The notes under the pieces are model-generated. The model did not search any database. It was not told the DNA's origin and was given only the letters and a program-made list of their open reading frames with translations. Below are positions 570 through 44,717 of a DNA stretch of 44,717 nt, in pieces. The translations under genes were made by a program, and so were the position numbers. The first letter of the stretch is position 1. The number at the start of each line of letters is the position of its first letter. This stretch comes from a phage: the NCBI GenBank assembly GCA_036609835.1, contig GCA_036609835.1_4358.1; one strand, given 5' to 3'.

Positions 570-3137
570 TTAATTAAAACCATTGCTGAATCCGTCGGAG
601 AAACCGCTGCCGTATGGCGCGACGCCGTCGTATTTATAGAATCCGTCATCATAGTTGTAGCCCGTAATCTTGACCGTGCGGTCGTCGCCGGGGTCGATTG
701 AAGAAACAACTATCTTCTGAGCATTATGCCTTGCTTCGTTGCCGAATGAAAACTCAGTTTTTAGCGCACTATTCCCCGTGTAGATTGCCTCCTCCGGCGC
801 GGAGAGCATAATCACTTCGCGGTCGTGGCTTCCTTTGATAACAGAAATACTCTGCACAGAGCCGTCGCGCTTCTTAAGAATGATGGAATGGTCATCACCA
901 GGAGTAAACGTAACAGGCTGAGACAGCGTCAGCGTAAGGCCATTGACGGCAACAACATAACCATCCTGCGGCGCGATACGCGAGCCTTTAACCACACTGA
1001 TTACGCCGCCGGGAGTAGCGAGAGCGCCTTCTTCGGTAGCTTCGAACTCTACGACAACTTTACTTAACGTGTTGCGCTGGTAGCGACGCCACGCCAGCCA
1101 GTACGCTTGCTGATAGTTACGTACACCCTTCGATTCGTACTCCTCGGTGTTCGCGCCGAGTTCTTCCGGGATATAAATCGTCTCCTGTACGTTTGTATCC
1201 GGGTCAATGTACGAGAACGACAGGCTATCGTAGGTTGTCGAATCGTTGAACGTGCGCGTCCATTTCTCCGTACCGGTCGTTTTGCTGCGGTGGGTGAAAA
1301 CCATCTCAGGCCCCGCAACAGGACGGTCGAATCGCAGCATAATATCAGCACCTTTACGGTATGCCGTACAAAACACGGCTTCCGCGATGGTCTGAACGAT
1401 GTCTTGCATGGTTGTGTCGTAGTCGTCGAATGTGTAGCAGAACTGCCCGGCTAATTCACTGCCAAAATATGACTCAATCTCTTCCTGCACCGCAAGTAAC
1501 TTGTCCATGTTTGCTGTTGTCAGCTCCAGATTACCCACCGCCGGGTCGCGCGCCAGCCTGATTAGCGACTGCACGGCCTGAGTGTTCGGTGTCATTACCG
1601 TATCGAATACGCCGTTACCTAAGTATTTGTAGCACATCTCGGTTGCAATCATGCGCAGTTCCGGTTCGGACACCTCGGCTGCACGTGGGGTTTGTTTACG
1701 GGCGCAGTGTACGGTAGTACGGTTGCCGTAGTGGGGGGTTGTGTCCAGCGACTGCCCATACAGATTAGTGAAAGTAACCTCGTCGCTAACAGTACCTTCA
1801 AAATCTTTATCGGTGTCCGAAACACGACGCATACGGGCGCGGAATCTGGAAGCAGTTGGTAAACTTCCGTAAAGAGTAATCCCTGTGTAATCCGTGTTCC
1901 GGCCTGTTACGGTTCCTCGTACGGTAAATATGTCACCTACAGGCTGTTTCAATTCATCTACCATCTGGTATTGCAGTTCGACTGTCACTGAAGCGCGGTT
2001 ATAGTCGCCGTTGTATTTGTACATGCCGTTGCTGGCAGCCACATTGGCTACAACACGGTCGACGGTTCCGCGGGTGATGTACGCCCATTCAGAGAGGGAA
2101 GCCGCGTAAGTATCCGCCGGGCCTATAAGATGGTTGCCCTCTTCACCTATAAACCATACAGATGTTCCTAGCTGGTTCCATATTGATTGATTTGTACTGA
2201 CGTCCACAATAAGGGTCGTTTCACTAACAGAAAGAACCGTGTACCTCCCGTCCAGGTTAACCTCATTACCCAAAGACCCTGGGGTTGTATCTGCATATAC
2301 GTTATCGAAGTATGCCAGGTCCCCGACCGCCAAAAACTCATCGAAACCAGCGTCATCGCCTACTACAACGCCGGTTGTTCCCTGCCGCTGGACAGTGTAG
2401 TCCTGCACGTCTATAGCGATATCATTAGGGGCGGGAAGAACAGCGCCATCGACATCGGCGTTTTTAAATGTAACGTACAATTTCTGGTCTATAGGGTCGC
2501 CGATATGCAATTGTGGTGTGCTGGTGTTATTCGGCGAAGTGTAAGGAGAATACACCGTCACCGACGAGCCAGTTATCTCGCTGATTCGGGTATCTGCCTC
2601 AGTTACACCGTCTTCCTCAATATGCAGATACCCTCGACCGGCGTCATAGTACGCATATTCAATAAGCGCCCCCGTGGCGTTAAACACCTTATACGTCTGC
2701 ATCAGGTCATTGGGTATAGTCTGCACTGTCCCGCAGATGTCATAAGAACGTCCATAAGGACGTGGCTTGTTCGAGCGGTCAGTAAGACTGTTGTTAGGCG
2801 ACGTAGCCTGATTGTTGGTAGCGGAATAATTAGCGTTAGCTGCTGTGTTTAGCCCGAACAATTTGGCAATTGGCTTAAGGATGAAACTGAATACACTACC
2901 GATAGCGTCGCCGATACCACCGCCTGCACCCTCGATAATGTGGTACACGGCGTCCTCGTCTTTGAGCGCATTGAAGTCGTCTGTAACATCAGTATCATCG
3001 CCAATCTCGCCGAGGTAGACGCGCGCAGGCACCCCGTCAGGAATATGGTTAACGACAAAATCTATCGGCATCCCGACGTGTTTTGTACGGTCGAAAGCGC
3101 CTTCAGCGTTTCGCGTGTAGTGCAGGATTATCGCCAA
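570..3137 (-). CDS. Large tail tip / central tail fibre protein (lambda J-like position), 855 aa
   Basis: Long ORF downstream of tape measure and minor tail genes; TTG start overlapping upstream stop; function assigned by size and position only. Confidence 0.5.
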   Translation of the reverse strand: MAIILHYTRNAEGAFDRTKHVGMPIDFVVNHIPDGVPARVYLGEIGDDTDVTDDFNALKDEDAVYHIIEGAGGGIGDAIGSVFSFILKPIAKLFGLNTAANANYSATNNQATSPNNSLTDRSNKPRPYGRSYDICGTVQTIPNDLMQTYKVFNATGALIEYAYYDAGRGYLHIEEDGVTEADTRISEITGSSVTVYSPYTSPNNTSTPQLHIGDPIDQKLYVTFKNADVDGAVLPAPNDIAIDVQDYTVQRQGTTGVVVGDDAGFDEFLAVGDLAYFDNVYADTTPGSLGNEVNLDGRYTVLSVSETTLIVDVSTNQSIWNQLGTSVWFIGEEGNHLIGPADTYAASLSEWAYITRGTVDRVVANVAASNGMYKYNGDYNRASVTVELQYQMVDELKQPVGDIFTVRGTVTGRNTDYTGITLYGSLPTASRFRARMRRVSDTDKDFEGTVSDEVTFTNLYGQSLDTTPHYGNRTTVHCARKQTPRAAEVSEPELRMIATEMCYKYLGNGVFDTVMTPNTQAVQSLIRLARDPAVGNLELTTANMDKLLAVQEEIESYFGSELAGQFCYTFDDYDTTMQDIVQTIAEAVFCTAYRKGADIMLRFDRPVAGPEMVFTHRSKTTGTEKWTRTFNDSTTYDSLSFSYIDPDTNVQETIYIPEELGANTEEYESKGVRNYQQAYWLAWRRYQRNTLSKVVVEFEATEEGALATPGGVISVVKGSRIAPQDGYVVAVNGLTLTLSQPVTFTPGDDHSIILKKRDGSVQSISVIKGSHDREVIMLSAPEEAIYTGNSALKTEFSFGNEARHNAQKIVVSSIDPGDDRTVKITGYNYDDGFYKYDGVAPYGSGFSDGFSNGFN

Positions 3138-3493
3138 AATTCAATCTCCGTGTACGTGTCTCTGAGGTCCGCCAGCCGGTCAAGTCGTACCTGACGGGAC
3201 GCAAGCTCGCAATGACTCACCATCCCGTCGAAGTAAACTCCCGCGTGCCACACGATACGACCGCCACGGCGATACCCCATAAGAACCGCACAGAAGTTTT
3301 CAGGCTTATCAATTTTTGTAAGCCCCTTCGTGTCACGATGGCCTTCGTCGAACGCTTCGTTAATCGCCGTTGGGCTTGTAACGTCGAACGCCGGGGTTTC
3401 TAACCCGGCATCGGCCCGTACAATGCGAACGTGATGCCAGCAATTGCGCTTGCGAAAGTCGTAAGGTATGCCCGTGTAGTCGTTAATATTCAT
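3128..3493 (-). CDS. Minor tail / tail tip assembly protein (lambda K-like position), 121 aa
   Basis: Cys/His-containing small protein (NCWHHV, HAGVYFDGMVSHCE) between tail genes; overlapping stop/start with neighbours. Confidence 0.45.
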   Translation of the reverse strand: MNINDYTGIPYDFRKRNCWHHVRIVRADAGLETPAFDVTSPTAINEAFDEGHRDTKGLTKIDKPENFCAVLMGYRRGGRIVWHAGVYFDGMVSHCELASRQVRLDRLADLRDTYTEIEFWR

Positions 3494-39432: not shown

Positions 39433-39634
39433 ACTGATTATCGCGGTACTGGCGGGATTCGCCGCCGGTGTCTACTGCCACGAGGGCCAATACGGCATGA
39501 TGGTCGCCGTATTAGGTATGTTCATCGCAATTTATCTGTGGGTGCCGGAATGAAAATTTACTGGTTTTATGAGGAAGACTGCCGAATCTGTCCGCGCTGC
39601 GGTATTGAGCATACGAAACGTGAGGGGTGTATAG

Positions 39635-39922
39635 ATGAGTACGCCTGAGGGGCGCATACAGAAATACGCAAAAGAGCGATTCGAGGCCATCGGGGGCCTC
39701 GTCCGTAAACTGTCTTATGAGGGGCGCTCCGGCGCTCCCGACCTGCTGGTAATTCTCCCGGGCGGCATCGTCTGGTTCGTCGAGGTGAAGAAAGACGAAA
39801 GCACGAAGCCTGACCCACACCAGTTACGAGAGCATGAGCGGATGCGTAAACGTGGTGCGAATGTTTTTGTCGTCGGGTCGTTCAAACAGGTTGACGACCT
39901 AATAGCGAACTATTATAGTTAG
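39635..39922 (+). CDS. VRR-NUC domain nuclease, 95 aa
   Basis: GAPDLLVILPGGIVWFVEVKKDE carries the D...E.K core. Confidence 0.6.
   Translation: MSTPEGRIQKYAKERFEAIGGLVRKLSYEGRSGAPDLLVILPGGIVWFVEVKKDESTKPDPHQLREHERMRKRGANVFVVGSFKQVDDLIANYYS
39887..39915 (+). promoter_or_regulatory. Promoter TTGACG-N17-TATAGT with AACTAT/ATAGTT palindrome, inside the 3' end of the VRR-NUC gene
   Basis: ttgacgacctaatagcgaactattatagt; downstream tagttagccctacacc matches the 33488 promoter. Confidence 0.5.
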
Positions 39923-39952
39923 CCCTACACCAACAATATAAGGAATTGATAG

Positions 39953-40144
39953 ATGAAATACGAATATGACCGTAAACCAGCCCGCGACATCGTACCTGGC
40001 GACATGATTTTCAACGTTAAGACCCGCCGCCCTGTTGCCGTTGATACGGTATTCGTCGAGTCAAACGGTAAACTGGTTATCGAAGATGTAACCGGTAACG
40101 TTACGGCATTCGGGCGTAAAGAGTTAGTTCTGGTGGCGAAATGA
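39953..40144 (+). CDS. Hypothetical protein, 63 aa
   Basis: AAGGAAT RBS; ATGA-coupled to methyltransferase gene. Confidence 0.45.
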   Translation: MKYEYDRKPARDIVPGDMIFNVKTRRPVAVDTVFVESNGKLVIEDVTGNVTAFGRKELVLVAK

Positions 40145-41100
40145 ACTATTACAACGAATGGGATAAAGGCGCAGCCGCGTGGCTGCGTGAACTAATAAAA
40201 CAGGGTCATATACCTTTTGGAGTTGTAGATGAAAGAAGCATTACCGAAGTTAAGCCAGAAGACCTCGACGGGTTCACCCAGTGTCATTTTTTCGCTGGTA
40301 TCGGCGGCTGGCCTCTCGCGCTCAGACTTGCGGGAGTTTCGGAAGATACGCCTATCTGGACGGGAAGCCCGCCTTGCCAACCGTTTAGCGCGGCAGGAAA
40401 GCAACTCGGACAGTTCGACCCGAGACACCTCGCACCTGTGTTCCTCGACCTCATCAGCGAGTGCCACCCTCCAGTCCTCTTTGGGGAACAGGTTGCGCCA
40501 GCAATTGCAAAATCGTGGATGTGCGATTTACAAACTCACCTGGAAGGAGAAGACTACGCCGTCGGGTTTGCCGTACTCCCAGCTTGTAGCGTCGGCGCAC
40601 CGCACAAACGCGACAGACTGTTCTTTGGCGCACACCAATTGGCCTACACCGACAGCGAACGACTTCAAAGGCAGCGGGGTGACAGTGATACGCAAGGATG
40701 GGAAGGACAGAACCTTCGACCGTCTGGATTATGCTACGGAACAGGGTTTGATGGCGGCGTGGCAAACGCCGAAGGCAATGGACGGGGTGTTTGCGACACC
40801 CCGAACCAGTGGGAGGCCGATGCATCGGGCTACGCATCTGCAAACGCAGGCCATAGCGCAACTAACAGACAACAGCGACTTACCGCCGGTGGCGAAGCCG
40901 ACCCGCATCACAGCTTCTGGTCAGATGCTGACTGGCTCGGATGCAGGGATGGAAAGTTCCGGCCAGTTGAACCCAGCACATTCCCGCTGGCTAATGGGAT
41001 ACCCGCCAGAGTGGGACGATTGCGCGGTTACGGCAATGCCATCGTCCCGCAAGTAGCCGCTGAATTTATAAAGGCATTCATGGGGGCGGTAAATGAGTAA
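40141..41100 (+). CDS. DNA (cytosine-5) methyltransferase; annotated frame (319 aa) appears discontinuous, with the middle segment reading better in the +1 frame (ORF 40229..41056)
   Basis: Frame 1: FFAGIGG (I), [13 protein letters not shown] (IV), FGEQV (VI-like), PHKRDRLFF (VIII), [12 protein letters not shown] (X). Frame 2 over 40640-41020: [28 protein letters not shown]. Confidence 0.6.
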
Positions 41101-42517
41101 GTTTCAAAGGCGCGAATACCAGAAGCTCATGACTTCGTTTATGCTGCAACACCCGCGCTGTAATATATGGTGCGGAATGGGGGGAGGTAAAACCTCCTCC
41201 ACTATGTGGGTGCTCAACCGCCTGTTCCGCAACGGGCAGCTTACGGAAGAGGACCGCGTGTTAATCCTTGCCCCGTTACGTGTTGCGTCCGGTACGTGGC
41301 CCGCTGAACAAGAGAAATGGCAATTCCCTTGTCTGCGTGTCGTAGATGCAACTGGTTCGGAGAAGCGCCGCATCGCAGCGCTGGAGTCAGATGCTAACGT
41401 GGTGTGCACTAACTACGAAGTTATCGAGTGGCTAATTGACTACTACGGCAAAGACGACTGGCCTTTTACGGTTATCGTTGCCGATGAAAGCACGAAGCTT
41501 AAATCGTTCCGCAGCCGTTCGGGTGGTAGCAAGCGGGCAAAGGCGCTCAGCAAGGTTGCGTTCGGAAAGGTTAAGCGTTTCATCAACCTGACAGGCACAC
41601 CGTCACCAAACGGCCTCAAAGACTTGTGGGGTCAGAACTGGTTTATCGACGCTGGCGAGCGCCTCGGCTCTTCGTACACAGCATTCACCGACCGCTGGTT
41701 TAACTCGGTACAGAAAGGTAAATCGGCTATGGCCCGCGAGTATCATGCACGACCGGGTGCGGATAATGAGATTCATCAGAAGATGAAAGACATCAGCCTG
41801 ACCATAGACCCTGCCGAGTGGTTTGGTTGTGAAGCGCCTGTTATCGTACCGGTGGAAATAGACCTGCCGAAGAAAGCGCGTCAGGCGTACATAGATATGG
41901 AGGAGAAGTTATTCGCAGAACTGGAGAGCGGGGAAGTTGAAGCGGCTAACGCTGCGGCGAAGACCTCAAAGTGCTTGCAGATTGCATCTGGTGCTGTATA
42001 TGTATCCGGGCCAGACGGCGAAGCAACCAAAGAATGGGAGAAAGTGCACGACACGAAACTGGATGCGCTGGCGTCCATTGTCGAGGAGTTACAGGGTGCG
42101 CCGTTACTGGTAGCCTATCAGTTTAAACACGAACTGGAGCGTATCCTTAAGCGATTCCCACAGGCACAGGCGTTCGCCAAAGGCGCTAGGGGGAACAAGC
42201 AGATGGAAGCGTGGAACCGTGGGGAAATACCTATGCTCCTGATACACCCAGCCTCCGCGGGCCACGGGCTGTCGCTACAACACGGCGGGCACCACATGGC
42301 CTTTATGAGTCAGGGGTGGAACCTGGAACATTATCTGCAGGTTATCGAACGCATAGGTCCTGTAAGGCAGATGCAATCTGGGTACAAACGGTCAGTATTC
42401 ATTTATCAAATAATAGCCCGAGATACTCTTGATGAAGTTGTCGCCACGCGTACAGATGAGAAAAGGTCTGTACAGGACGAACTACTTAATTATATGAAAC
42501 GTAGGAGTAAGAAATGA
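41093..42517 (+). CDS. SNF2-family helicase/ATPase, 474 aa
   Basis: Walker A CGMGGGKTSS, DEXH-like VIVADESTKLK, NLTGTPSPNGL; ATGAGTAA overlap with methyltransferase stop. Confidence 0.7.
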   Translation: MSKFQRREYQKLMTSFMLQHPRCNIWCGMGGGKTSSTMWVLNRLFRNGQLTEEDRVLILAPLRVASGTWPAEQEKWQFPCLRVVDATGSEKRRIAALESDANVVCTNYEVIEWLIDYYGKDDWPFTVIVADESTKLKSFRSRSGGSKRAKALSKVAFGKVKRFINLTGTPSPNGLKDLWGQNWFIDAGERLGSSYTAFTDRWFNSVQKGKSAMAREYHARPGADNEIHQKMKDISLTIDPAEWFGCEAPVIVPVEIDLPKKARQAYIDMEEKLFAELESGEVEAANAAAKTSKCLQIASGAVYVSGPDGEATKEWEKVHDTKLDALASIVEELQGAPLLVAYQFKHELERILKRFPQAQAFAKGARGNKQMEAWNRGEIPMLLIHPASAGHGLSLQHGGHHMAFMSQGWNLEHYLQVIERIGPVRQMQSGYKRSVFIYQIIARDTLDEVVATRTDEKRSVQDELLNYMKRRSKK

Positions 42518-42999
42518 GCAAGGTATCATACGACCCTGAAACCGGTATTTTCACATGGGTCGAAACAAAACGTAGGGGTTTTGTTGGAAAGAAAGCCGGA
42601 TGTTTTTGTCCGCGGGAGGGGTACATTCGTATCCGAATAAACGGAAAACTAGAACTAGCACATCGGTTAGCATGGGACATATGCAATCCAGATAACCCAC
42701 TTACCCCACAGGAACAGATAGACCATATCAATCACATTCGAACCGATAACCGAATATGCAACCTGCGGAAAGTTACCAACACTGAAAATAGCCGCAACGC
42801 ATCGATAGGGGTAAACAATACTAGCGGCGCTCTTGGTGTATGGCGGGAAAAGAGAAGAAACAAATGGGTAGCAGAGATAAAAGTCGACAGAAGAAAAATA
42901 CATCTAGGACAGTTTGATGATTTTGGAGAAGCTGTTGCCGCGCGTAAAGCCGCGGAAGCTGCTTACGGATTTCATAAAAACCACGGAGAAACCGCGTGA
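42514..42999 (+). CDS. HNH homing endonuclease with AP2-type DNA-binding domain, 161 aa
   Basis: IDHINHIRTDNRICNLRKVTNTEN (HNH) and GVWREKRRNKWVAEIKVDRRKIHLGQFDDFGEAVAARKAA (AP2-like); locally AT-rich. Confidence 0.7.
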   Translation: MSKVSYDPETGIFTWVETKRRGFVGKKAGCFCPREGYIRIRINGKLELAHRLAWDICNPDNPLTPQEQIDHINHIRTDNRICNLRKVTNTENSRNASIGVNNTSGALGVWREKRRNKWVAEIKVDRRKIHLGQFDDFGEAVAARKAAEAAYGFHKNHGETA

Positions 43000-43135
43000 A
43001 CATCATAGCCCCGATTCCGGCATTGCAAAAACGTATCAAGGAACTCGAAGAAGAGGTTCTGCGGCTACGTCAGCAAAGAGACGCCGCTAATGCGCAACTG
43101 GCGTTTGTACTGGAGAAGTTATCAGAAGAGTAGAG

Positions 43136-43164
43136 AAAAGGCCCCGTTTGGGGCCTTAGTTTTA
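43136..43164. terminator. Bidirectional rho-independent terminator between convergent HNH and tailspike genes
   Basis: aaaaggccccgtttggggccttagtttt. Confidence 0.7.
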
Positions 43165-44717
43165 AGCCAACGACATTCGGGAGTTAGCGAAAGCTAAAGC
43201 CTGAGCCTGCGTCGTAAACTCAGCGATGAAGAAGTCACTAAATCTGATAACAGCACCTGAACCTCCCCCAGTAGAGACGTACAGACCTACAGTACCGTTA
43301 GCGGAAGCTTTACCCACCCCAAATGTGCTAATCCACTCACCAGACTTAGTATAAACGCTACCCATAGTAATACCTGACGTTATACTCACATCTGCTGTTC
43401 CTGATTGGAGGCGAGAGTTGACGCCCCACACGTACCATCTACCGGATGTAAGTGTCGTTCTTGACGCTACCATTTCATATAAACCGGACCCAGGGAATGA
43501 AAATTCGGTACATGTAGCGGCGTGAAGTCCGTCAGATACAGTCGAACCGTTAACGGTACCGCTACCAGAAAAATTATGGCTACCTGAGTCAAATGTGATA
43601 GCTTTTAACTTATTCCCCGTCGGCGTATTAAACACTCGTCCCCTTGTTAAATTTCCTCGTAGAGACAAGTTTGTAGTGGCTACCGTTGCGGATTGCGACG
43701 CGACAGACTCTACAATAACGTCCTTTCCAGAACTGCCGTTTAAATACACATCGTGGGCTACAATGGTGCTTTGTGCATCCACTACAATATCCTGATTACC
43801 ATCAGCGTTGTCAAAACGGCAACCATAAGTTACTAAGTTGGAGTTGGATAGCTCGATGTTGTTGAGATAAGAATACTCAGCAAAGAATATCGCGGTGTCT
43901 ACCAACTTGAGAACTCGCGGTTTTTGCGCCACGCCATCTACCTGAACAGCCGATGATGTTGCAATAGCTTCCATCCATACATTGGATACCCCGCATGGAG
44001 ATGTAGGGCAGTCACCCGATTTGCTTTTTAAGTATATCCCGCCGCCTCCGGAAGCCTCAATAATGGAGTCTTTAAGCCACCATCCGCCTATCCCACCGTT
44101 ATCGACAGTACCGTTTAGGTAGACGGCATAGGTGGAGATGCCGTCGAAGTGGATATTGTAGAGGGTATCGGCCCCGCAATGCATCTCCGAGCCACTAATC
44201 GCGTAATACCCCCAATCACACGTAGATACCCCAATACTTCTCCATGTATTACCGATGTTCCCGGAAGGCTTCTGAATGGCCTTGTTGATGTTGTGGATGT
44301 ATAAATCACTAAAATTATGACGTCCGGAATATTGGTCTGACGGGTCAAAACTAATACCTACGGCCCCAGTTGTACCTGTACCATCTACGGCAAAACCACC
44401 GCTGTGTCGAAACTGCCAGTGCGGGGTGGATAAATTAACCTGTACAGTATTTGCATAGTTTGCCGATGGTTTTAATATTGCAGCACCACCTACACCTTTT
44501 ATCTGCTTACTACCCAGAGTGATTGCTTCTGTATACTCACCCGGAGAAACAATTAAGTCGTTTTTAGTTAACGACGCATCTACCGCGGCTTGAAGGGTAG
44601 AAAAGTCGCCAGAATGCTTAATATCATTGTTACGTGCAAGCAAACTCCTTTCGCCACTGCCTATGTTCTCGGCACCGTCCGCGTCAGATAATGTTTCAAC
44701 GGTGTTACCGTTGGAAA
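43162..44717 (-). CDS. Tailspike / receptor-binding protein, C-terminal part (5' end continues across the window junction to ATG 557)
   Basis: ORF 43162..44643 is open upstream to the window end and in phase with 1..557; Gly/Ser/Thr/Asn-rich repetitive sequence consistent with a beta-helix domain. Confidence 0.7.
   Translation of the reverse strand, partial: SNGNTVETLSDADGAENIGSGERSLLARNNDIKHSGDFSTLQAAVDASLTKNDLIVSPGEYTEAITLGSKQIKGVGGAAILKPSANYANTVQVNLSTPHWQFRHSGGFAVDGTGTTGAVGISFDPSDQYSGRHNFSDLYIHNINKAIQKPSGNIGNTWRSIGVSTCDWGYYAISGSEMHCGADTLYNIHFDGISTYAVYLNGTVDNGGIGGWWLKDSIIEASGGGGIYLKSKSGDCPTSPCGVSNVWMEAIATSSAVQVDGVAQKPRVLKLVDTAIFFAEYSYLNNIELSNSNLVTYGCRFDNADGNQDIVVDAQSTIVAHDVYLNGSSGKDVIVESVASQSATVATTNLSLRGNLTRGRVFNTPTGNKLKAITFDSGSHNFSGSGTVNGSTVSDGLHAATCTEFSFPGSGLYEMVASRTTLTSGRWYVWGVNSRLQSGTADVSITSGITMGSVYTKSGEWISTFGVGKASANGTVGLYVSTGGGSGAVIRFSDFFIAEFTTQAQALAFANSRMSLA
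44591..44717. repeat. Right copy of the 127-bp terminal duplication
   Basis: Identical to 1..127. Confidence 0.9.

Follow-up and report, generated by a model that had tools for sequence, protein, structure and literature searches.

The C5 cytosine methyltransferase gene at positions 40141–41100 of a 44,717-nucleotide (nt) stretch of phage DNA (NCBI GenBank assembly GCA_036609835.1, contig GCA_036609835.1_4358.1; this whole stretch is termed the window) has a second gene of 275 codons nested wholly within it in the +1 frame (40229–41056). The outer frame and its 319-residue product are referred to as alpha (frame 1) and the nested frame and its product as beta (frame 2); both, like all of the window's features located below except for one hairpin to which no strand is assigned, lie on the + strand. 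Across a very large family of phages and prophages each frame stays open, purifying selection acts on the two in alternating segments, and alpha and beta strictly co-occur. By analogy with the two-polypeptide enzyme M.EcoHK31I, beta is probably a required subunit of the methylase. The explanation preferred for the region as a whole, and held with moderate confidence, is a dual-coded accessory methylase (alpha/beta) and a separate mobile HNH endonuclease at the end of a K1G-like replication operon. An earlier, sequence-only reading of this DNA, made by a model, had described a methylase, an SNF2 helicase and an HNH endonuclease as a coupled module, and the open reading frame (ORF) at 40229–41056 is absent from its account of the methylase gene.

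Alpha matches PF00145 (59 bits; cutoff, 22), though the match is limited to residues 72–166 (model positions 64–162 of 324), and matches M.HhaI over the same stretch at 5e-07. Along alpha, motifs I, IV, VI and VIII extend to ~40630 and are followed by a loop, the segment ‘FW..DW..CRDGK.RP’ and motif X. These motifs include motif I FAGIGG (40291–40308; S-adenosylmethionine-binding type), motif IV PPCQ (40369–40380; catalytic cysteine type), motif VI GEQV (40483–40494; ENV-like), a QxRxR-like motif VIII read in frame 1 as HKRDR, a further segment (40603–40626), CRDGKFR (40942–40962), which precedes motif X, and motif X GNAIVPQ itself (41032–41052), which was identified by eye only. The loop (~40630–40915) is stop-free, of low complexity, rich in glycine, aspartate, asparagine and arginine, and unalignable. 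Neither motif IX nor a target-recognition domain was detected in alpha, in which the stretch between motifs VIII and X is unalignable and covered by no profile. A recurring [LVM]A[DHNY][TS] in the loop is the WPTP repeat of beta (TGG CCN ACN CCN) read one base earlier. Near the N-terminus, the alpha sequence YYNEWD (window 40147–40308) resembles motif II of M.HhaI (YSNEWDKYA) and stands ~45 residues before motif I FAGIGG, while in M.HhaI motif II follows motif I; HMMER aligned the two sequences weakly, and the N-terminal motif order may be permuted in alpha's family.

Beta begins at an ATG 88 nt into alpha, preceded by GGAG with a 6-nt spacer (40219–40231) and placed directly after an in-frame TAG (TAG-ATG, 40226–40231); other clades start at the same ATG (+88) or at one at +106 with AGGAG ahead of it. 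The first ~75 residues are disordered and unconstrained in sequence, and are followed by a conserved domain consisting of a helix and a beta-hairpin (40454–40606), which overlaps alpha motifs VI–VIII and in which selection alternates between the frames. Next are WPTP-type repeats (40640–40786), of which beta homologues possess one to several in the form WPTPxAxD; a 135-nt (45-codon) segment without a counterpart in phage K1G (40761–40895) adds the second repeat and preserves both frames. The part that follows the repeats has the consensus ‘P.R..ASG..LTGS.AG....GQLNP.HSRWLMG.P.EWD’, and the C-terminal motif (40961–41017) varies at frame-2 wobble positions and resembles motif IX of C5 methylases, with a weak match to M.HhaI. 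As a whole, beta matches phrog_1008 at 1.8e-56 and, with a predicted isoelectric point (pI) of 9.9, is basic, whereas alpha is acidic (pI 5.3).

The two frames were compared across ~140 loci, comprising 62 viral loci from IMG/VR collected via the methylase protein (43–80% protein identity; G+C, 0.45–0.65) and 80 bacterial loci collected via the frame-2 motifs. In the full-length viral loci the +1 frame is stop-free nearly throughout (e.g., 351 of 375 and 421 of 447 codons), while the +2 frame holds 9–36 stops. When synonymous codons were shuffled with the frame-1 protein kept (300 trials per locus, 30 loci), the observed openness of the +1 frame was attained in 0–3.7% of trials per locus and in none for 25 of the 30 loci, and in the reciprocal shuffle, with the frame-2 protein kept, the observed openness of frame 1 was never reached. 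Frame 2 is stop-free over alpha motifs I–VI, where it encodes the beta leader, in 81 of 86 unique loci, against a chance probability averaging 0.18, and frame 1 is stop-free over the WPTP region, where it encodes the alpha loop, in all 86 (mean chance probability, 0.08). All 80 of the bacterial loci found through beta, which derive from Gamma-, Beta-, Alpha- and Deltaproteobacteria and several metagenome-assembled genomes, have the methylase encoded in the -1 frame along the entire ORF, and the phase is identical in each. In two IMG/VR relatives (L015 and L022, ~3001–3153) the alpha frame is broken, with residues 1–51 in another frame, and the beta leader has two stops; these breaks could be assembly errors or decaying copies.

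The frame under selection changes along the gene. In close relatives the third position of frame-1 codons varies most over 40141–40470 and 40981–41070 (the last bin analysed); over 40471–40560 and 40860–40980 the maximum is at the third position of frame 2 or is shared equally by the two frames. The per-nucleotide entropy of 111 unique sequences alternates in the same manner, with frame 2 selected over ‘SG..L.GS.A’, frame 1 over ‘CRDGK’, frame 2 over ‘GQLNP..S.WLMG.P.EW’ and frame 1 over ‘G.GNAIVPQ.AAEFIK’, and the same mosaic is present near alpha motifs VI–VIII and the beta sequence ‘G..IYKLTWK.K.TP.G..Y..L.AS..RT’. The doubly constrained stretch at 40898–41053 retains 74–84% nucleotide identity in phages of Rhodobacter, Burkholderia, Pseudomonas and Xanthomonas and in phage N15.

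In four loci (L023, 609–2045; L117, 468–1901; L086, 2182–3900; L119, 1990–3855) alpha gains ~145–180 residues just after the beta stop codon, between ‘CRDGK.RPVE’ and the downstream alpha motif, and no Pfam match was found in the insertion in any of the four. The insertion in effect separates the segment shared by the two genes into two copies, one serving beta and one serving alpha. The first copy keeps the beta WLMG.P..W, with a decayed alpha reading in three of these loci; the second, located in L023, L117 and L086, keeps the alpha R.GRL(R/K)GYGNAI, and its frame-2 reading has stops. These variants bear on the suggestion that composition or codon usage in the methylase gene has produced the nested ORF as a by-product, with no functional protein encoded by it. 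The lack of a recognised domain, the largely disordered prediction and the unconstrained first ~75 residues would suit such a by-product, but the frame is almost never kept open in the synonymous shuffles, the conserved beta segments vary at frame-2 wobble positions, beta's W, M and P residues do not vary among the Proteobacteria-wide loci and the insertion variants keep the beta motif apart from the alpha motif, such that a by-product is considered scarcely credible.

A different way to account for two selected frames is a single methylase chain produced by programmed ribosomal frameshifting, in which frame 1 would supply motifs I–VIII, frame 2 the variable region and motif IX, and frame 1 again motif X. 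The selected segments, joined in the order in which they occur on the DNA, do resemble the canonical motif order, and the frame-1 CRDGKFR, the frame-2 motif and the frame-1 GNAIVPQ line up with NGKTRKLHPRECARVMGYPDSY...GNSVV of M.HhaI. Such a chain is nevertheless very unlikely because selection changes frame at least four times, requiring at least four shifts, because the junction codons are variable with no conserved slippery site, and because both frames stay stop-free through the segments that the frameshift product would skip. In addition, beta has a Shine–Dalgarno-like sequence and an ATG of its own, and in M.EcoHK31I separate polypeptides have been demonstrated experimentally.

M.EcoHK31I, a C5 methyltransferase recognising YGGCCR, consists of two polypeptides (PMC2836561, PMC3404938). 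Its beta is encoded wholly inside alpha in another frame, and the two were shown experimentally to be separate chains (PMC2836561). Alpha carries motifs I–VIII plus X and beta carries motif IX, and both must associate for activity; N-terminal truncation of beta weakens the alpha–beta association, and its N-terminal part is partly dispensable (~42 residues) (PMC2836561, PMC3404938). The nested gene of the window, set beside this enzyme by description only, appears to match its architecture feature for feature: at ~140 loci, as in the window (40229–41056 within 40141–41100), one gene lies wholly within the other in a different frame; alpha holds motifs I–VIII plus X, and beta appears to carry motif IX; and the partly dispensable N-terminus of the M.EcoHK31I beta has its likeness in the unconstrained leader here. 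Phage N15, in which gene 58 (L068, 981–1628) contains an unannotated nested beta homologue of 215 residues, has a leader much shorter than that of the window. Unlike M.EcoHK31I, the methylase of the window is an orphan: it belongs to a lytic phage, and no restriction enzyme is linked to it. Its beta is also longer (275 residues, 86% of alpha) with WPTP repeats in variable number. M.AquI is a further natural two-subunit C5 methylase (PMC3404938). It is split end to end, with motifs I–VIII in alpha, IX–X in beta and a short overlap, unlike the window gene, in which motif X remains in alpha and beta is fully nested; from 41032 onward variation in the window gene falls at frame-1 wobble positions, as opposed to a second subunit holding both IX and X. 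The M.AquI subunits were reportedly described as products of overlapping ORFs by Karreman and de Waard in 1990.

Under the proposed two-polypeptide reading, alpha would form the catalytic core, with motifs I–VIII, a loop unconstrained in sequence and motif X, while beta, presumably translated from its own GGAG and ATG, would contribute an unconstrained leader, the helix–hairpin domain, the WPTP repeats and the motif-IX-like C-terminus. The two would assemble into one active enzyme, as do the alpha and beta chains of M.EcoHK31I, with beta supplying motif IX and perhaps DNA recognition, and nesting would guarantee that the two are inherited and expressed together. That alpha and beta associate, and that activity depends on it, is suggested by the analogy. 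The identification of the beta C-terminus with motif IX is tentative. The motif is 14 nt upstream of alpha motif X on the DNA, which is the expected place of motif IX, and the single alignment returned by hhalign between the beta profile and M.HhaI (approximate sequence) falls on KLHPRECARVMGYPDSY, at M.HhaI 273–289 in motif IX, with a probability of at most 4%. A joined profile of the frame-2 segment and the frame-1 motif X scored 20.9 against HhaI 271–310 (P = 0.011), compared to 12.9 for frame 1 alone (P = 0.26). A search with an M.HhaI fragment for a canonical alignment returned short fragments only.

It is also possible that beta is a real protein whose role has nothing to do with methylation and whose gene was overprinted on that of the methylase; it might, for instance, act in anti-defence, in regulation or by binding DNA. 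Overprinted viral genes are usually accessory in function, beta is basic and repeat-rich, the evidence for motif IX is weak, and the few long beta homologues with fused domains are joined to a Dam or PD-(D/E)XK domain and not to a C5 domain. On the other side, the co-occurrence of alpha and beta is strict (80 of 80 bacterial and essentially all full-length viral loci), alpha has no detectable motif IX and an unalignable variable region, the beta motif occupies the very position on the DNA at which motif IX would be expected, immediately upstream of motif X, and M.EcoHK31I is a direct precedent. An unrelated role is considered rather unlikely.

Several results weigh against a two-polypeptide enzyme. 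The loci are related by ancestry, such that the counts above are not independent trials, and the translation of beta is itself deduced from the sequence. Beta has no hits in Pfam, NCBIfam or PADLOC, and its profile has none among PDB sequences at E values up to 10. AlphaFold2 modelled beta with an overall predicted local distance difference test (pLDDT) score of 58, in which only residues 81–120 are confident (pLDDT, 73–87), and a Foldseek search of the PDB with this model returned nothing meaningful; the alpha model, built with a shallow alignment, is unusable (pLDDT, 38.5). The hhalign probabilities for motif IX are all <5% and statistically weak. Joining the frame-1, frame-2 and frame-1 segments into one chain did not extend the Pfam match, and the C-terminal profile of this chain hit no PDB methylases. 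Further, the target-recognition domain of M.EcoHK31I is assigned to alpha, from which recognition by beta would be a departure.

DNA recognition by beta is a further and weaker proposal than that of one enzyme, suggested because the repeats are in beta and alpha is without a conserved variable region. In its fullest form, in which the WPTP repeats, variable in number, and motif IX constitute a specificity module in the alternative frame and every member of the phage and prophage methylase family to which N15 gp58, the K1G methylase and BcepC6B g33 belong is an obligate alpha/beta enzyme, the proposal is speculative and leans towards the doubtful.

K1G ORF31 and ORF30, N15 gene 58 and BcepC6B g33 belong to the same gene family as the window gene and share the same nested ORF. 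Homologues of beta are numerous: a word-indexed search gave 5,986, and an exhaustive one gave 10,176 clusters at 50% identity. By tblastn, beta-like sequence was found only in phages of Gram-negative hosts and cyanobacteria, plus one short match in a Dunaliella virus, and PF00145 was present in frame in none of the 10 long beta homologues tested. A likeness to actinophage methylases, which carry similar ‘LPTP’ repeats in one frame with the catalytic domain, was considered and dropped, given this tblastn distribution and the lack of PF00145 in the long homologues. Two homologues, P0157 (758 residues) and P0159 (497 residues), are called as fusions to DUF2800/PD-(D/E)XK nuclease or Dam N6-adenine methylase domains and may be read-through products or real fusions with the downstream gene.

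The annotation of the pair in public records is uneven. K1G is annotated with both ORF31, a ‘C-specific methylase’, and ORF30, a ‘Mte8-like protein’ that is the beta homologue and which RefSeq names a second ‘DNA methyltransferase’. Both ORFs are annotated in K1G, K1H, the K1ind phages and fKuEco01, while most records, including that of N15, annotate alpha alone. In the Escherichia coli EC20 chromosome (NZ_CP084900.1; L149, 1154–2323), the Prokaryotic Genome Annotation Pipeline calls a prophage methylase homologue as two pseudogene pieces, labelled ‘missing C-terminus’ and ‘missing N-terminus’, and a frameshifted MT-A70 methylase gene adjoins; the unalignable loop of alpha may trigger a false pseudogene call at this locus. 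In transcriptomic data for vB_Eco_K1B4 (PMC12645636), gene 053 may be the nested ORF, though RNA-seq cannot separate two frames. No paper interpreting the nested ORF of phage methylases was found in the literature searched, which covers few subscription journals.

The window is the genome of a member of Kagunavirus (K1G-like; Guernseyvirinae), with its best megablast matches among Escherichia phages of that genus. Megablast of 39600–43200 matched 472 phage records, including phiEc3 and phiEc4 at ~93.5% identity and K1G at 88%. In annotated relatives the order of genes is DNA polymerase A, VRR-NUC nuclease, a 63-residue ORF, ‘C-specific methylase’, helicase, a variable ORF and a 45-residue ORF, closed by the convergent tailspike gene. 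In the window these include the 63-residue ORF (39953–40144; phrog_4879), the methylase (40141–41100), an SNF2-family helicase (41093–42517), the HNH endonuclease (42514–42999) and a conserved, coiled-coil-like ORF of 45 residues (42996–43133; phrog_5915), the last gene of the operon; the coordinates given by the sequence-only reading for the methylase, SNF2 and HNH genes match the ORFs listed. The helicase is identified by PF00176/SNF2-rel_dom (48.9 bits; cutoff, 24.9) and phrog_62 (1e-164), with PF00271 (Helicase_C) below threshold (19.3; cutoff, 23.5).

A sigma-70-like promoter-like site, TTGACG-17-TATAGT (39891–39919), matches 10 of 12 consensus positions and lies inside the 3' end of the VRR-NUC gene. 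Its hexamers and 17-nt spacing are invariant in 19 relatives, in which the bases of the spacer vary, and in Salmonella phage f18SE, a Jerseyvirus, one base is changed in each hexamer; promoter-like sites are not enriched in the region (4 found; 2.8 expected). A promoter in the VRR-NUC gene had been placed at 39887–39915, 4 nt from this site, so that the conserved promoter-like site is present and its position is corrected; the function as a promoter is putative. Between the operon and the convergent tailspike gene is a G+C-rich hairpin, GGCCCCgtttGGGGCC (43138–43159; free energy, -17.4 kcal/mol; z, -3.2), that abuts the tailspike stop codon and is likely to act as a bidirectional terminator, though a consensus scan did not list it. 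The HNH gene had been thought to end the operon next to a terminator, but the 45-residue ORF intervenes before the hairpin.

As read from the sequence, the 63-residue ORF and the methylase meet in an ATGA at 40141, the methylase and SNF2 gene share the 8-nt overlap ATGAGTAA (41093–41100), SNF2 and HNH meet in an ATGA at 42514, and HNH and the 45-residue ORF in a GTGA at 42996. Of the ATGA-type linkage earlier ascribed to all three genes, the SNF2/HNH junction stands; the methylase/SNF2 junction is the 8-nt overlap and not ATGA, and the ATGA at 40141 couples the methylase to the upstream 63-residue ORF. A shared promoter and tight translational coupling of the operon genes are plausible, and transcription probably runs from the promoter-like site through the 63-residue ORF, methylase, SNF2, HNH and 45-residue ORF to the hairpin.

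This arrangement, with its single strand, start/stop overlaps, common upstream promoter-like site and downstream terminator, is what would recommend the view that the methylase, SNF2 and HNH genes are one coupled module for anti-restriction or DNA remodelling. The three-gene module is, however, ordinary and already annotated in relatives, and the evolutionary histories of its genes differ. In f18SE the helicase is kept, no methylase match was found by blastn and the 63-residue ORF is coupled directly to the helicase, which argues against the functional pairing of methylase and SNF2 suggested earlier. The DNA of the methylase gene matches 70 Escherichia and 21 Salmonella phage records, as opposed to 105 and 331 for the module region. 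Because f18SE is without the methylase and fewer records match it than match the module region, the helicase is a core replication gene of the Guernseyvirinae and the methylase an accessory cassette. The HNH gene occurs only in a minority of related phages, with unrelated ORFs in its place in K1G and phiEc3, and strict co-occurrence of the three genes across relatives was not observed. A single module is thus held to be highly improbable, while protection of the phage from host restriction is a reasonable role to propose for a phage orphan methylase.

The HNH gene has a history of its own. It matches PF13392 (HNH_3; 42.3 bits; cutoff, 24.8), phrog_99 (9e-64) and the PADLOC homing-endonuclease model; its earlier label of HNH-AP2 holds for the HNH_3 domain, above threshold, while the AP2-like C-terminal region is weak (PF00847, just 18.2 bits; cutoff, 33.3). 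It is locally AT-rich, as had been noted, with a G+C of 0.455 compared to 0.525–0.559 in its neighbours and 0.506 in the window, although the tailspike gene is similarly low (0.466). The gene occupies a variable cargo slot that extends from the helicase stop codon to the 45-residue ORF and whose edges coincide exactly with start/stop codon overlaps. The synteny comparison proposed by the sequence-only reading was run and places the HNH gene in this slot here, in Hrm2 and in f18SE, whereas K1G has an unrelated 61-residue ORF (L001, 4233–4418) and phiEc3 a 171-residue Toprim-like ORF with a weak Toprim_2 match (L003, 4399–4914; E = 4e-4).

By DNA similarity, the HNH gene is present in ~100 phage records, compared to the 472 that match the module region. 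It is 91–96% identical at the nucleotide level to full-length copies in f18SE, Jersey, Hrm2 and phage 26, and 95.7% identical to the f18SE copy, while the flanking genes are 86–90% identical. When identity along the helicase was computed in 150-nt bins against phiEc3 and f18SE, the gene was 95–100% identical to the HNH-less phiEc3 from 41093 to ~42140 and fell to 68–80% over 42143–42442, where identity to f18SE climbed from 83–93% to 92–97%. Because identity to phiEc3 drops exactly where identity to f18SE rises, the tract of ~42140–43000 was imported from a Jerseyvirus-like, HNH-bearing donor into a phiEc3-like backbone; it comprises the helicase 3' end (~400 nt) and the HNH gene (42140–42999), is closest to f18SE and has a left edge that is approximate within one 150-nt bin. 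Such a co-conversion-like tract is the pattern expected of a homing endonuclease, which would cut in or near the helicase 3' end. The earlier suggestion of a mobile insertion is supported by the sporadic presence, the identity to f18SE and this tract, and the HNH gene is best explained as a separate mobile homing-type endonuclease that came into the cargo slot after the helicase gene along with the 3' end of that gene. The HNH homing endonucleases of other Guernseyvirinae (Jersey, f18SE) have the same site downstream of the helicase, the same sporadic presence and the 91–96% identity noted above; nothing in the window is notably different, apart from an imported tract, clearly seen here, that takes in the 3' end of the helicase gene, and the result is a clean if routine case of homing accompanied by co-conversion.

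The nested ORF is annotated in few records and is not interpreted there, and the architecture itself is known from M.EcoHK31I; a two-frame design common to a very large phage and prophage family appears to be undescribed within the literature searched. Because gene callers accept only a single frame at any locus, in thousands of phage and prophage records alpha or beta alone is called, beta is named a ‘DNA methyltransferase’ or ‘hypothetical protein’, or the gene is split into pseudogene pieces. Recognition of the alpha/beta pair corrects these calls and assigns a large family that has no Pfam, NCBIfam, PADLOC or PDB-sequence hit. Of the same-strand nested gene pairs that we could document, this one ranks among the longest and those with the deepest conservation, and it provides a natural test set for overlapping genes, with >100 diverged loci and variants in which the shared segment is separated into two copies.

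For the biology of the family, the results suggest that phage orphan methylases commonly follow the two-polypeptide design of M.EcoHK31I, which bears on assays of their specificity and anti-restriction role, as alpha might be inactive when cloned without beta; N15 would be convenient for experiments. If the specificity of these enzymes does lie in the alternative frame, repeats gained or lost, always in lengths divisible by three nucleotides, would adjust which target is recognised and leave the catalytic core as it is, and M.EcoHK31I would be no longer a curiosity but the first characterised member of a very common architecture.

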